From a virus, in the IMG/VR virus record IMGVR_UViG_3300028048_000053, positions 34,692 through 98,691 of that record: 64,000 bases of DNA; one strand, 5' to 3'. Shown here piece after piece: positions 48,911 through 52,483 of this stretch; within the stretch, counting starts at the first letter, position 1; each line of letters starts with the position of its first letter. The position numbers were made by a program, and so were the translations under genes. Below the pieces are notes generated by a model, which did no database searches, was not told where the DNA came from, and worked only from the letters and a program-made list of their open reading frames with translations.

Positions 48911-49378
48911 ATGAGTATTTTTATAGATGGCAGTTGTCGTGGTAATCCCGGTCCCGGTGGCTTCGCTATTGTTGAACTAAATGAAAATAATCAAGTGGTA
49001 TTTTGTCACCAAGAGTAGGTAAATTCAACAACAAACAATGCTATGGAATTATCAGCGGCGTTATACGCATTAGTAAAATATGGCAAGAAGGACTTTCTTA
49101 TTCCTACAGTTTATTGTGATAGTACGTATACTATTAACACATTGACGAATTGGAAAAAGAGCTGGAAGAATAATGGTTGGAAGCGGCCTGGTAATAAACC
49201 AGTAGAAAACTTGCAATTAATTCAAAATTATGATAAAATAGAAGAAAAAGGATATAGGATTAATTTAGTTTATGTAAAAGGTCATAGTGGTATTTTAGGA
49301 AATCATCTTGCAGATATTCTTGCAACGGGAACTATGACTGAACAATAGGTAATGGAAAAATATGGAGGAGATAGTTAA
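48911..49378 (+). CDS. rnhA: ribonuclease H (one internal TAG; the ORF-track stop at 49346 is TAG, true stop TAA 49376-49378)
   Basis: IFIDGSCRGNPGPGGFA...TTNNAMELSAA...YVKGHSGILGNHLADILA; ATG 48911. Confidence 0.65.
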
Positions 49379-50691
49379 TGGACTATACTGCCAAAGATAT
49401 AGTTTCTCTATCTGCTGGAAGAGCTTTTCGTGAAAAATTAGGTATGTATCTTTCCGCTGATAAACAGGAAGCTATTAATTTAGGATTAAGAGAATTAATT
49501 GTAAATGTTCAAGATGAATATGAGGTTTACAAACCAAGTAATCCAAAACTTATAATTACACTCGATACCAAATCCCACGAAATAAATGTAGAAGATAATA
49601 TGCGCGGAATCCCAGTGGGTTTGCGAGAAGATGGAATTAATTCTTTAACTGCGGCATTTCTTATTCCTCATTCAGGAGGAAAACATACTGAAGGAGTTTA
49701 TTCAAGCGCTGTTGGTATAAACGGAGAAGGAAACAAAATTGTATGCCACACAGCAGAATGGCTCGAAGTTGAAGTTCATAGAGATGGAAAGATATATAGA
49801 CAACGCTTTGAATCAGACGACGAAGGCGCTCATGCAATGTCAGATGTGACAGAAACACAACCAGTTAGTGGCACTGGAACTTTTATCTCATATAAGCCAG
49901 ACCCAAAGGTATATGGAGATATTTTTATTGATATAGATGCTTTACGAAAAATGCTGCATGAAATGTCTATGTTCTCTACTGGACTGAGAATTGAGTTATG
50001 GGTAGATAATAAACCTGAAATTTTTTATTCAGAAAGTGGATTAATTGATGGTTTATCTACCGAAAATCGACTTTCAAAACCATTTTCTTATTATTATGAA
50101 ACTCCTGATTGTAAAGTTGAATTAGCTTTACAATGGGTAAGTAAAAAGGGTGAAATTAGAGGTTACGCAAATAATCTTTATATGCCCGACGGAGGAGCTT
50201 TTATTACAGGATTTAAATCTTCGCTAACAAGAACTTTTAATTCTCTTGCTGGAGAAAAATTTGATAGCGACGCTATTAGAAATGTTTTAGACGGCTTTGT
50301 AAGTGTAAAAGTTAAAATGGGACAGTTTACGAATCAACAAAAAACAGCTTTAGCCAATCCAGAAGCACGAACAGCCACTTCAACAGCCATTTCTAATGCT
50401 TTAAAAGAGTATCAACATGACAGACCTAAAGACTTTGCGCAAGTCGTCGAATTACTTACTAAACTCTCGCGTGCGGAAGCCGCTGCCGAGAGAGCGCGTA
50501 AGCAAGTCTTAGAGGCTACTAAAGACATTGAGCGAAATCAGAAGAAGAAGGTCTTTGCCAGTGATAAGTTAAAAGATGCCGAATATTTAGGTCAAAATTC
50601 AACCCTCCTTATAGTGGAAGGAAATTCTGCTCTGGGCGGAATGGCTCAAGCAAGAGACCCTTCAAAATTTGGCCTTCTGGCAATTAGGGGT
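49378..50691 (+). CDS. DNA topoisomerase II large subunit (T4 gp39/GyrB-like), exon 1
   Basis: GyrB ATPase region ending at the conserved ..GLLAIRG|K site; the stop TAA immediately after belongs to the intron. Confidence 0.7.
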
Positions 50692-51946
50692 AAATAAAAT
50701 TGCCCCAACTTACCTAACCAATTCATTATTGGGGTCTATAAAATATTATAGGCTAACGGGGAAACCTGACCAGTTTCTAAAAGTGGCTCTTTTAGTTAAG
50801 ATGAAGGCAATCCCGTGAGGACTTGTGAATTTGTTCATAGAAAAATTAGAAAAGAGGTGAAAAGATTAAATGGAAAAAGGACAAAAATTTGGTTTATTAA
50901 CACTAATTAAAGAAGTGCCTAGACCCGAGGGTAAAAATAGAAAAGGTAAATATTGGTTATGTCAATGCGACTGTGGAAATCAATGTATTAAATATCATTA
51001 TGATATTAGCCGTGGCGATACAAAATCTTGTGGCTGTCTGCAACACCGAAAACCGATTTATGATAAAAACGAACATGAAATTTCTAATCATGCCGGTATT
51101 TATGGTTTTCAAAATGTTTTTAATGGGCACTGGTACATTGGAAAAGCGAAAAATTTATATAACCGATACTGCCGTCATAAAAACGATTGGCAAACACATC
51201 AAGAAAAACAATTTTATCAAGCAATTAAAAAATATGGTTGGGATTCTTTTAATTATTATATATTAAAAGAATATTTAGAAATGCCGACTAGAGAAGAGCT
51301 TTCAGAACAAGAAGAATATTTTATTCAAAAATATGATTCTTATAAAAATGGATATAATGCTTCTTATATAAGTAGTGGAGGATTTTATTCAGAAGAGCAT
51401 CAGGAAAAATGTACCCAGATTTTAAAAAATTTAAACCAAAAACAAAAGAATGAAAATCATCCAAATACAGATTTTACAAAAAACGAAATTTTAGATATTT
51501 TTCATTTTGCAATGTTAGGTGCCCCAGTAAAAGAAATTTATGAGAAATATAAACATCATGACATTTCGTATGAAGGCTTCAAACAGATTTATAGAGGTCA
51601 ACATTTTCGAGATTATTTACCAAATAGTTGGGAGTCAAGACCTGTTGTTGCAACAAATTCAAAACTATGGGGAATAGATGTAATTGATATAAAAACACGT
51701 CTACTTAAAGGAGAAGATATTCAATCTATCTACCAAGATTATAAAGAGAAATGCTCTTTGGCAGTCATACAAAATATTAAAAACAATAAAACTTATAAAC
51801 AAATTCACCCTTGTATCGACTAATCGCGTTGTTGCGATGTAAGATTTCTATTAATACGAAATCTGAAAAGGTAAGCACCATAAACTAGAATAGCCAACTA
51901 GTTGGTGAAAAGTTAGTCAGTCCCAGTAGAAATACTGGATAAGATG
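50692..51946 (+). ncRNA. group I intron (1255 nt) in the topoisomerase II gene, carrying a homing-endonuclease ORF
   Basis: Exon 1 ends GGGGT; an IGS GCCCC lies 10 nt into the intron (P1 with a U.G at the splice site); the intron ends ...GATAAGATG (omega-G); exon 2 restores LRGK|ILNV-type continuity (..IRGK|IINAMSNNEE..EEIKLLLSALN); 3-prime region contains TAGTC. Confidence 0.65.
50870..51823 (+). CDS. Zn-ribbon plus GIY-YIG homing endonuclease (intron-encoded, no TAG)
   Basis: KFGLLTLI...WLCQCDCGN..SCGC zinc ribbon, then GIYGFQNVFNGHWYIGKAKNLYNRYCRHK..AIKKYGWDSFNYYIL GIY-YIG core; 317 aa. Confidence 0.75.
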   Translation: MEKGQKFGLLTLIKEVPRPEGKNRKGKYWLCQCDCGNQCIKYHYDISRGDTKSCGCLQHRKPIYDKNEHEISNHAGIYGFQNVFNGHWYIGKAKNLYNRYCRHKNDWQTHQEKQFYQAIKKYGWDSFNYYILKEYLEMPTREELSEQEEYFIQKYDSYKNGYNASYISSGGFYSEEHQEKCTQILKNLNQKQKNENHPNTDFTKNEILDIFHFAMLGAPVKEIYEKYKHHDISYEGFKQIYRGQHFRDYLPNSWESRPVVATNSKLWGIDVIDIKTRLLKGEDIQSIYQDYKEKCSLAVIQNIKNNKTYKQIHPCID

Positions 51947-52483
51947 AAAATTATAAATGCCATGTCAAACAACGAAGAGGATATTTATCAAAACGAAGAA
52001 ATTAAGCTCTTGCTTAGTGCTTTGAATATTACACCGGGCAAGTATGATGCTAAAAAGCTAAGATATGGAAAGCTAGGTATTTGCGTGGATGCGGACGCAG
52101 ATGGTGGGCATATAGCATTATTAATCATGGCCGCAATGACGTATCTCGCTCCAGATTTTATTAAAGAAGGGCGTTTATGCTGGTTACGTTCTCCTTTGTA
52201 TATTGTAAACAATAGAGGAAATGAAACGTATTATTTTTCCGATGAAGAATACAATAAAGTTCGTGGAAAAATAAAAGGGGAAGTAACTAGAAATAAAGGA
52301 TTAGGTGAATTATCAGCAGAGTCGGCCCGTAAATCCATGTTTGACCCAGAATATCAAAGACTGGACATTTTAGAGTATGACCCGCACGCGATTGAGCTAT
52401 TGACACAGTTAATGGGCTCTGATGTAACTCCACGAAAAGATTTTATTTTTAAAAATGTTGATTTTAGCACAATTTCAGAGTAA
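51947..52483 (+). CDS. DNA topoisomerase II large subunit, exon 2 (Toprim region)
   Basis: KIINAMSNNEEDIYQNEEIKLLLSALN... then Toprim motif LGICVDADADGGHIALLIMAAM; exons 1 plus 2 give 617 codons in frame. Confidence 0.7.
   Translation, partial: KIINAMSNNEEDIYQNEEIKLLLSALNITPGKYDAKKLRYGKLGICVDADADGGHIALLIMAAMTYLAPDFIKEGRLCWLRSPLYIVNNRGNETYYFSDEEYNKVRGKIKGEVTRNKGLGELSAESARKSMFDPEYQRLDILEYDPHAIELLTQLMGSDVTPRKDFIFKNVDFSTISE

Follow-up and report, generated by a model that had tools for sequence, protein, structure and literature searches.

Mobile group I introns of the IA2 type, carrying GIY-YIG homing endonucleases and residing in DNA-metabolism genes of phages, are textbook biology. In the introns of the T4 td and nrdB genes, which we read from NC_000866, the P7.1 and P7.2 helices lie between the P7 5′ and P3 3′ strands (the IA2 layout), a P2 hairpin separates P1 from P3, and the 5′ strand of P3 abuts J3/4. 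A different disruption is seen at the T4 gene 39/gene 60 locus, where a topoisomerase subunit is split into two separate polypeptides without an intron, and where a mobA remnant and a 50-nucleotide (nt) translational bypass are found. Here we consider a stretch of viral DNA of 64,000 nt (positions 34,692 to 98,691 of the IMG/VR record IMGVR_UViG_3300028048_000053; hereafter the window, to which all coordinates refer), in which a GyrB/ParE-like type IIA topoisomerase gene is interrupted by a 1,255-nt insert. In all probability the insert belongs to the mobile group I introns, and among these to the phage IA2 (T4 td-like) type, and it is equipped with its own homing endonuclease gene.

A further point of comparison is offered by huge phages of the gut (Jug phages), in which terL, nrdD and DNA polymerase genes harbor short group I introns and homing endonucleases in large number, with splicing confirmed by metatranscriptomes for 37 of 76 group I introns (PMC12880540). 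DNA topoisomerase IV is a conserved single-copy gene in that study and does not figure among its named intron-split examples (PMC12880540). Some loci related to ours show the same intron density, but the lineage of the window phage differs from the Jug phages in its genome of ~172 kilobases (kb), its Shine-Dalgarno sites and its recoding of TAG. Topoisomerase and gyrase go unmentioned in a 2014 review (PMC3984707), and in full-text literature searches of incomplete coverage no account came up of a phage gyrB/topoisomerase gene with a group I intron. Taken as a whole, the locus is a well-supported, ordinary example of a known mobile element in a new host gene, and represents expected biology for specialists.

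The interrupted topoisomerase gene

The principal features of the locus are as follows.

49378..50691, + strand: exon 1 of the GyrB/ParE-like type IIA topoisomerase B subunit; 438 codons, ending ...LAIRG; collinear with the intron-less alleles L001-L003
50692..51946, + strand: predicted group I intron with an IA2 (T4 td-like) core; 1,255 nt
50870..51823, + strand: intron open reading frame (ORF) for a predicted GIY-YIG homing endonuclease (I-TevI type); 317 amino acids (aa), 0 in-frame TAG
51947..52483, + strand: exon 2; 178 codons plus stop, starting KIINAM...; the remaining Toprim and the GyrB C-terminal domain
52494..54839, + strand: partner A subunit, GyrA/ParC-like; 781 aa with a C-terminal beta-pinwheel; context, outside the intron

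Read without splicing, the gene appears as two ORFs on the + strand. The first (49378-50697, 439 aa) matches Pfam DNA_gyraseB (5.4e-26) and ends in ...LAIRGK and a stop, and the second (51944-52483, 179 aa) matches DNA_gyraseB_C (2.7e-9) and starts MKIINAM; a preliminary description of this DNA had exon 1 ending at LAIRG↓K (the arrow marks the splice point) and exon 2 resuming at IINAM, as is indeed seen in these two frames. Joining 49378-50691 to 51947-52483 keeps the frame and yields 616 aa plus a stop, in agreement with the 617 codons proposed earlier for an intron that ends in G (51946). A strong Shine-Dalgarno sequence, GGAGGAG, lies 5′ of exon 1.

The virtual spliced product behaves as a complete B subunit and is collinear with ParE and GyrB proteins of solved structure. 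Its residues 11-612 align with residues 42-663 of Streptococcus pneumoniae ParE (PDB 4juo, chain 4juo_C) in one collinear alignment (E=6.4e-64), with no gap at the splice point (...FGLLAIRGKIINAMSNNEEDIYQNEEI... against ...AILPLRGKVINTAKAKMADILKNEEI..., LRGKVINTAK), which answers the proposed alignment with GyrB/ParE. It spans the NCBIfam gyrB and parE models over their whole length, and the collinear series of GHKL ATPase, transducer, Toprim and C-terminal tail domains is present only once the exons are virtually spliced. As in bacteria, a GyrA/ParC-like gene comes next. In contrast to bacterial GyrB/ParE, the phage protein scores ~290-330 bits against NCBIfam equivalog cutoffs of 740-900, and hence represents a divergent phage lineage; its closest homologue among GenBank phages, from the human gut Phage Phass-1, is 38% identical. 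By these alignments, the interruption falls at RG↓K in the catalytic Toprim motif of a phage GyrB/ParE-like gene.

The label gp39-like, which had been attached to the protein, is a loose one. It shows 22-25% identity to T4 gp39 and gp60 (gp39: 22%, E=5e-9; gp60: E=3e-12), against the far stronger match to S. pneumoniae ParE, and judged by sequence it is much nearer bacterial GyrB/ParE than gp39. Likewise, the statement that the split falls in the same region as the T4 gp39/gp60 break is only approximately right. The RGK motif is present in T4 gp39 itself (PLRGKVLNSWG...NKEL, residues 435-458), which extends as far as residue 516, while residue 31 of gp60 aligns with residue 476 of the spliced product; the T4 break thereby maps to 457-476, 19-38 residues downstream of the intron at 438↓439, and the alignment rejects equivalence of the two sites. 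The likeness between the loci is that the Toprim region of the same protein family has been broken by a homing-endonuclease-associated insertion. The window phage also lacks the three-subunit gp39/gp52/gp60 organization of T4, in that its partner is a single 781-aa GyrA/ParC-like protein with the GyrA C-terminal domain.

That the insertion is exact is apparent from alleles without it. A homologue search with the virtual product found thousands of sequences, and the best 120, which were inspected, are all uninterrupted and 615-624 aa long. The closest of the intron-less alleles (P0001, 616 aa) shares 98% aa identity with the virtual product, and its DNA (L001) aligns without gaps to the joined exons at 95% nt identity; relative to such alleles, positions 50692-51946 are an insertion of exactly 1,255 nt. 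At the insertion site L001 reads ...GCAATTAGAGGT↓AAAATTATAAAC... (AGAGGT↓AAAATT; intron-less junction stretch GGTCTTCTAGCAATTAGAGGTAAAATTATAAACGCC), and the predicted spliced junction of the window exons reads ...AUUAGGGGU↓AAAAUUAUAAAU... (GGU↓AAA). The boundary is formally ambiguous by 3 nt (AAA), and we set it at GGU↓...G↓ because no other choice gives the 5′ splice site a preceding U and the intron a final G. The last codons of exon 1 are AGG GGU in the intron-bearing window and AGA GGU in the intron-less allele, a silent change through which an A-C mismatch in P1 becomes a G-C pair.

Two other intron-less alleles, L002 and L003, are mosaic relative to the window: they are 92-99% identical to it over the first ~1,100 nt of the gene and 63-83% identical from just upstream of the intron site through the gene end. 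This boundary suggests recombination near the homing site.

Fold of the intron and its same-site relatives

The elements of the proposed fold, all on the + strand, are listed in order.

50687..50691, +: P1 5′ strand, the last exon bases GGGGU; U50691·G50702 pair, with the 5′ splice site after 50691
50702..50706, +: internal guide sequence GCCCC (P1 3′ strand), 10 nt into the intron
50709..50715, +: P3 5′ strand CUUACCU; five of the seven P3 pairs compensatory; present in the minimum-free-energy fold
50718-50732, +: hairpin P3.1, CCAAU/AUUGG, between P3 and P4; named by position
50733-50754, +: hairpin P3.2, GGUCUAUAA/UUAUAGGCU, between P3 and P4; named by position
50756..50816, +: P4-P5 domain, with P4 ACGGGG/UCCCGU, J4/5 AAA, P5 CCU/AGG and P5b at 50777-50795
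50817..50830, +: 5′ strands of P6 (GAGG) and P6a (GUGAAU, 50825-30); the endonuclease ORF lies in the loop closed by P6/P6a
51803..51823, +: P6a 3′ strand AUUCAC (51803-08), P6 3′ strand CCUU, J6/7 GUAUC and P7 5′ strand GACUAA (51818-51823)
51824-51837, +: P7.1, UCGC/GCGA, an IA-type insertion between P7 and P3′
51842-51864, +: P7.2, AGAUUUC-UAUUAAUAC-GAAAUCU, an IA-type insertion between P7 and P3′
51869..51875, +: P3 3′ strand AGGUAAG; from covariation and the minimum-free-energy fold
51877..51906, +: P8 hairpin, ACC..AACUAG/CUAGUU..GGU; seven of nine pairs compensatory
51913..51918, +: P7 3′ strand UUAGUC; GACUA/UAGUC as in P7 of T4 td
51920..51946, +: P9.0, GUC (51920-51922) with GAU (51943-51945), and the terminal G (51946), after which lies the 3′ splice site
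51923-51938, +: P9, CCAGUA-GAAA-UACUGG, a hairpin between the strands of P9.0

This arrangement parallels that of T4 td closely. The td intron reads, in order, ...UAAACGGGGAACC...CAAUCCCGU..., GACUAU, P7.1 (CCC/GGG), AGUA, P7.2, GAAAC, P3′ (GAUAGA), P8 and GAGAUAUAGUC; the window intron reads ...UAACGGGGAAACC...CAAUCCCGU..., GACUAA, P7.1, UGUA, P7.2, GAAA, P3′ (AGGUAAG), P8 and GAAAAGUUAGUC. P4-P5 is nearly identical in the two, and P7, which is the guanosine-binding site of group I introns, is identical (GACUA/UAGUC). Both endonuclease ORFs are housed in the P6 region and end beside P7, and both introns are inserted at a conserved motif of a gene of nucleotide or DNA metabolism, here a topoisomerase B subunit rather than thymidylate synthase. 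The window intron lacks P2 and the P9.1/P9.2 extensions; its P3 5′ strand begins 2 nt after the guide sequence, and two hairpins precede P4. The IA2-like structure anticipated in the preliminary description is thus recovered in P7.1/P7.2 and the td-like core, though with P2 missing. A short P10, identified by inspection only, is possible between the UU just 5′ of the guide and the AA with which exon 2 opens.

The ribozyme core is not wholly outside the ORF. About 300 nt of the intron do lie beyond it, close to the ~290 nt first estimated, but the last ~21 nt of the ORF (its last seven codons and stop) also form P6a′, P6′, J6/7 and the P7 5′ strand, with the stop codon TAA sitting within GACUAA. 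With the ORF deleted, the minimum-free-energy fold of the window intron has −87.8 kcal/mol against −61.1 ± 4.4 for shuffles (z=−6.1), and it reproduces the covariation-supported helices together with a P6a that bridges the ORF. An earlier fold drawn by eye (P3 GGCUA/UAGCC, P7 ACUA/UAGU, P8 CCAA/UUGG, with the ORF wholly outside the core) was ruled out by the relatives and by T4 td.

Relatives of the intron were sought in IMG/VR first with the P3.2-P4-P5 core and subsequently with the pattern TAACGGGGAAACC-N(8-38)-GCAATCCCGT. This recovered ~90 phage contigs, among which are many ORF-less introns of ~230-300 nt and many with GIY-YIG ORFs at the equivalent position. One of them (L027) carries a 232-nt ORF-less intron at the identical RG↓K site (...ILAIRG↓...↓KIINCLS), which is itself recognized over the full length of the Rfam Intron_gpI model (36.3 bits, E=8.7e-6); another family member, L050, reaches 60 bits against a gathering score of 50. 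A 17-nt pattern, CCTTGTATCGACTAWYC, occurs at 42 loci, of which only L123 and L135 are real same-site introns; the remaining loci were rejected as chance matches in unrelated phages. Together with L063 these completed a set of nine same-site introns, the window copy and eight from other phage contigs, which we aligned after removing the P6a-loop ORFs. No similar DNA was found when the 3.1-kb region and the 5′ core were compared with 50,697 GenBank phages by megablast and blastn, and an exact 29-nt pattern from the P7′-P9 region had no match in IMG/VR.

On this alignment RNAalifold found P1, the long-range P3, two hairpins, P4, P5, P6, P7.1, P7.2, P9 and P9.0, with compensatory changes in 31 of 59 pairs. 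The full model, which includes the P3/P7 pseudoknot and P8, comprises 15 helices and 76 pairs, and was compared with controls in which the partners were slid by 1-3 columns and with 500 column shuffles. Standard pairs occupy 94.7% of the alignment cells in the model and 37-47% with slid partners; pairs changed on both sides number 42 of 76 in the model and 8-14 in the slid controls; and none of the 500 shuffles reaches any observed value. The U·G pair of P1, claimed from the GGGGT exon end (50687-50691) and the GCCCC guide (50702-50706), is kept in eight of the nine rows, the ninth (L097) being shifted by one column, and the adjacent pair 7/27 appears as GC, CG, UA or AU among the relatives. 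Compensatory changes in P6a are seen in L095, L097, L123 and L135, both P7.1 and P7.2 covary, and so does the 3-base-pair P9.0 (GUC/GAU, GUA/UAC, GUG/CAC, GCA/UGU, GUU/AAC). The terminal G precedes AAAAU or AAGAU in all nine introns. P4 is invariant, as are five of the six pairs proposed for P7; the sequences are those of T4 td, and as they never vary, covariation is uninformative for them.

The layout of P3 found in the window extends to the whole retrieved family, as with strands CACACUU/GGGUGUG in L050 and CACUCU/AGAGUG in L082. Further, when 12 ORF-less relatives, without the window, were used to build a covariance model of the 3′ half, this model matched the window at 51807-51947 with 78.5 bits (E=1.1e-15). 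From these observations one might go on to propose, tentatively and with considerable doubt, that the intron is part of a large undescribed sub-family of IA2, represented on the ~90 IMG/VR contigs with one core pattern, in which P2 is absent, the P3 5′ strand stands beside the guide and two hairpins lie between P3 and J3/4, with the ORF of the topoisomerase copy running through P6a′, P6′, J6/7 and the P7 5′ strand. Were this so, translation of the endonuclease and folding of the ribozyme would be mutually exclusive, coupling expression of the homing enzyme to splicing, and, in a phage that recodes TAG, the absence of TAG from the endonuclease and topoisomerase genes would allow them to be read ahead of suppression.

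Some members of the family occupy other sites. Going by flanking translations only, L008 has an intron at a different GyrB-like site (Toprim EG↓DSA), while in L016, L019, L042 and L049 the introns fall inside the DxDxDG Toprim motif, with the exon resuming at ..VDGAHI... In L027 (IMGVR_UViG_3300045988_131511), the interval ~7800-14970 holds four Rfam group I matches with E<=1e-5 in ~7 kb and four weaker ones (E 0.001-0.05), and its topoisomerase genes seem riddled with introns. In L097 the gyrA-like gene, too, is called in two pieces, of 170 aa and no fewer than 620 aa; the gap of ~330 nt between them (4731-5064) may represent a further intron without an ORF.

The endonuclease, mobility and alternative explanations

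The product of the intron ORF combines two modules, as had been recognized from its sequence along with its freedom from TAG. The first, at aa 4-67, is a Cys-rich zinc ribbon (..WLCQCDCGN..SCGC..) that matches phrog_374 (7e-15), a module of phage HNH endonucleases and an addition at the N-terminus relative to the T4 td enzyme. The second, at aa 75-165, is a GIY-YIG domain (Pfam PF01541, 25.4 bits against a cutoff of 22.6) that aligns with the catalytic domain of I-TevI (1MK0, E=1.5e-5) so that the GIY, YIG, Arg, Glu and Asn positions coincide. The protein also exceeds the cutoff of TIGR01453, "group I intron endonuclease" (65.6 bits against 56.05), and its C-terminal region is common to phage homing endonucleases, although annotated members of these are only ~27% identical to it. 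A Shine-Dalgarno sequence, GAGGUG, lies upstream of the ORF. The tail of the ORF (..H P C I D stop) is encoded by P6a′, P6′, J6/7 and the P7 5′ strand, and these core nucleotides are invariant although the endonucleases are only 49-73% identical in protein. An intron ORF that reaches into the core in this manner has been linked to tightly controlled expression (review PMC3984707).

Homologues of the endonuclease form ~40 clusters at 54-73% identity, in addition to an exact copy on contigs of up to 172 kb; all four that were checked lie between GyrB-like fragments of ~440 and ~180 aa, followed by a gyrA-like gene. The closest exons, at 98% aa identity, are intron-less, whereas the closest copies of the endonuclease (73%, 66% and 59% aa identity) sit in topoisomerases only 50%, 47% and 37% identical to that of the window. 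The virtual spliced frames are open, at 616-633 aa, in all six relatives that cover the whole gene. Discordance of this kind between endonuclease and exons, with the spliced frames kept open, is what one would expect if the intron had homed into divergent alleles and retained its splicing.

The sequences themselves demonstrate that the insertion is exact, that the insert has a covarying fold, to which family the endonuclease belongs and that the element has spread among divergent alleles; splicing, cleavage and homing we infer, and envisage the following course of events. The topoisomerase gene would be transcribed as a single RNA, in which the intron would fold with P1 formed by the exon GGGGU and the guide GCCCC, and with P7.1/P7.2 bracing a core of P3-P8-P7 and P4-P6. 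An external guanosine would then attack after U50691, and G51946, placed by P9.0, would lead to ligation of the exons into an mRNA for the 616-aa subunit. The I-TevI-like endonuclease from the P6a loop might cut intron-less alleles of co-infecting relatives, repair of which from the intron-bearing copy would transfer the intron.

A few points weigh against an IA2 intron. Rfam RF00028 (Intron_gpI) has no match on the window at 50500-52100, taken whole or in halves; the covariation comes from nine sequences only, some of them closely related to each other; the P3 layout is unlike that of T4 td and nrdB, with the 5′ strand beside the guide, two hairpins between P3 and P4 and no P2; and the overlap of the ORF with P6′, J6/7 and P7 means that translation of the endonuclease could disturb folding. 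The Rfam miss is expected, as an ORF of ~950 nt in P6a splits the model, but it counts as a negative result all the same. P2 and P3.1 are listed among the optional pairings of group I introns (PMC3873408), and hence the P2-less layout with P3.1/P3.2 is a variant and not grounds for exclusion from IA2. The missing Rfam match and the overlap with the core might also be taken as signs of a former group I intron that has decayed and splices inefficiently, leaving the gene a pseudogene or dependent on a host or phage splicing factor. This we hold to be very improbable: in the window copy no core helix is disrupted and the fold is far more stable than that of shuffles, both exons and the endonuclease ORF are uninterrupted, and the six whole-gene relatives have kept open spliced ORFs despite only 37-58% protein identity among the hosts, which argues for long-term function.

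Alternatively, a homing-endonuclease cassette could have split the gene into pieces, with the RGK-stop and MKIINAM... halves translated apart and assembling noncovalently, as in the precedents of T4 gp39 and gp60 and of NrdA in Aeromonas phage Aeh1. The stop codon one codon past the splice site and the ATG exactly at the intron 3′ end make both halves formal ORFs; but this ATG, made of the last three intron bases, is missing in most same-site relatives, the introns of which end ...ACG, ...GCG and ...GUG, so that the exon-2 start is not conserved. Nor is there a Shine-Dalgarno sequence before 51944 (CUGGAUAAG), as against the GGAGG-type sites at exon 1, the endonuclease and the gyrA-like genes. 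Gene callers do annotate the relatives as two genes, but the read-through tails of exon 1 vary among them (RGK-stop, RGI-stop, RGRVFAHTV-stop, RGRFCPYLSNL-stop), and the intron contains no terminator-like site on the + strand. T4 tolerates a break of the same subunit 19-38 residues away, yet in the window the break is inside the conserved RGK motif and not between domains. Finally, the ~300 nt of noncoding flanks and the ORF 3′ end keep a compensated group I fold, for which a simple cassette has no need, and the 232-nt version at the identical site has no ORF at all. Hence, we give translation in pieces scarcely any credence. An intein was ruled out by the stop codon right after the 5′ junction and by the failure of the insert to continue the host frame. 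We accordingly favor the reading of the preliminary description, a group I intron with a GIY-YIG homing endonuclease splitting a topoisomerase gene, on the combined strength of the exact insertion, the td-like covarying fold, the ORF-less same-site copy and the TIGR01453 match; the statements it made about the sequence are confirmed, far beyond chance.

Other introns, TAG recoding and wider significance

The window contains two more candidate introns. A tRNA-Leu(UAA) gene at 13018-13601 (+) has an apparent 499-nt group I intron (13052-13550) after tRNA position 34, the same U34↓A35 site as that of the cyanobacterial/plastid trnL intron. The split tRNA-Leu is called by ARAGORN when its intron option is used, the virtual spliced tRNA of 85 nt folds as a class II tRNA-Leu, and Rfam Intron_gpI matches 13042-13408 (46.1 bits, E=1.5e-8); a 21-nt direct repeat, aatggagttagatgaacagcc, occurs in this region at about 13259 and 13490. 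Since all phage group I introns known by 2014 were in protein-coding genes (review PMC3984707), the tRNA-Leu intron may be more novel than that of the topoisomerase. The other, at ~60208-61440 (+), appears to belong to the same family as the topoisomerase intron, the model of ORF-less relatives matching 61285-61451 (52.6 bits, E=7.6e-10). It has its own GIY-YIG ORF at about 60370-61275, with in-frame TAGs, and interrupts a gene with a C-terminal GIY-YIG domain; virtual splicing at GCGGU↓...UUUG↓CGAU restores ...GIYKITNTKNGMCYVGQAV↓DLRERWRQHIKRG....

One member of the tRNA array at 340-14113 (12869-12962) has a long variable arm and the anticodon CUA, with which it would read TAG. When TAG is taken as sense, stop-to-stop ORFs with 2-10 in-frame TAGs each tile the + strand of the window, for example 44395-45774, 45687-46667, 46668-47555, 47815-48687 (UDG), 48911-49378 (RNase H), 55111-55935, 58407-59435, 59423-60259 and 60352-61275. 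Neither of the two topoisomerase genes contains an in-frame TAG, nor does that of the intron endonuclease. Sub-threshold Rfam matches in the array are YrlA (Y RNA-like) at 10601-10718 (+; 45.1 bits against a gathering score of 69), a tRNA-Sec-like sequence at 8336-8420 (+; 43.5 against 47) and 49 nt at 11074-11122 (+) that resemble bacterial large-subunit rRNA (31.6 bits).

With the intron described here, the B subunit of type IIA topoisomerases joins the phage genes known to be colonized by mobile group I introns. For annotation, this means that in many metagenomic phage contigs gene callers turn the topoisomerase gene into two "genes" and a hypothetical protein. Moreover, as endonuclease-bearing and ORF-less versions share the RG↓K site, that site offers a natural series for the life cycle of introns and their homing endonucleases.

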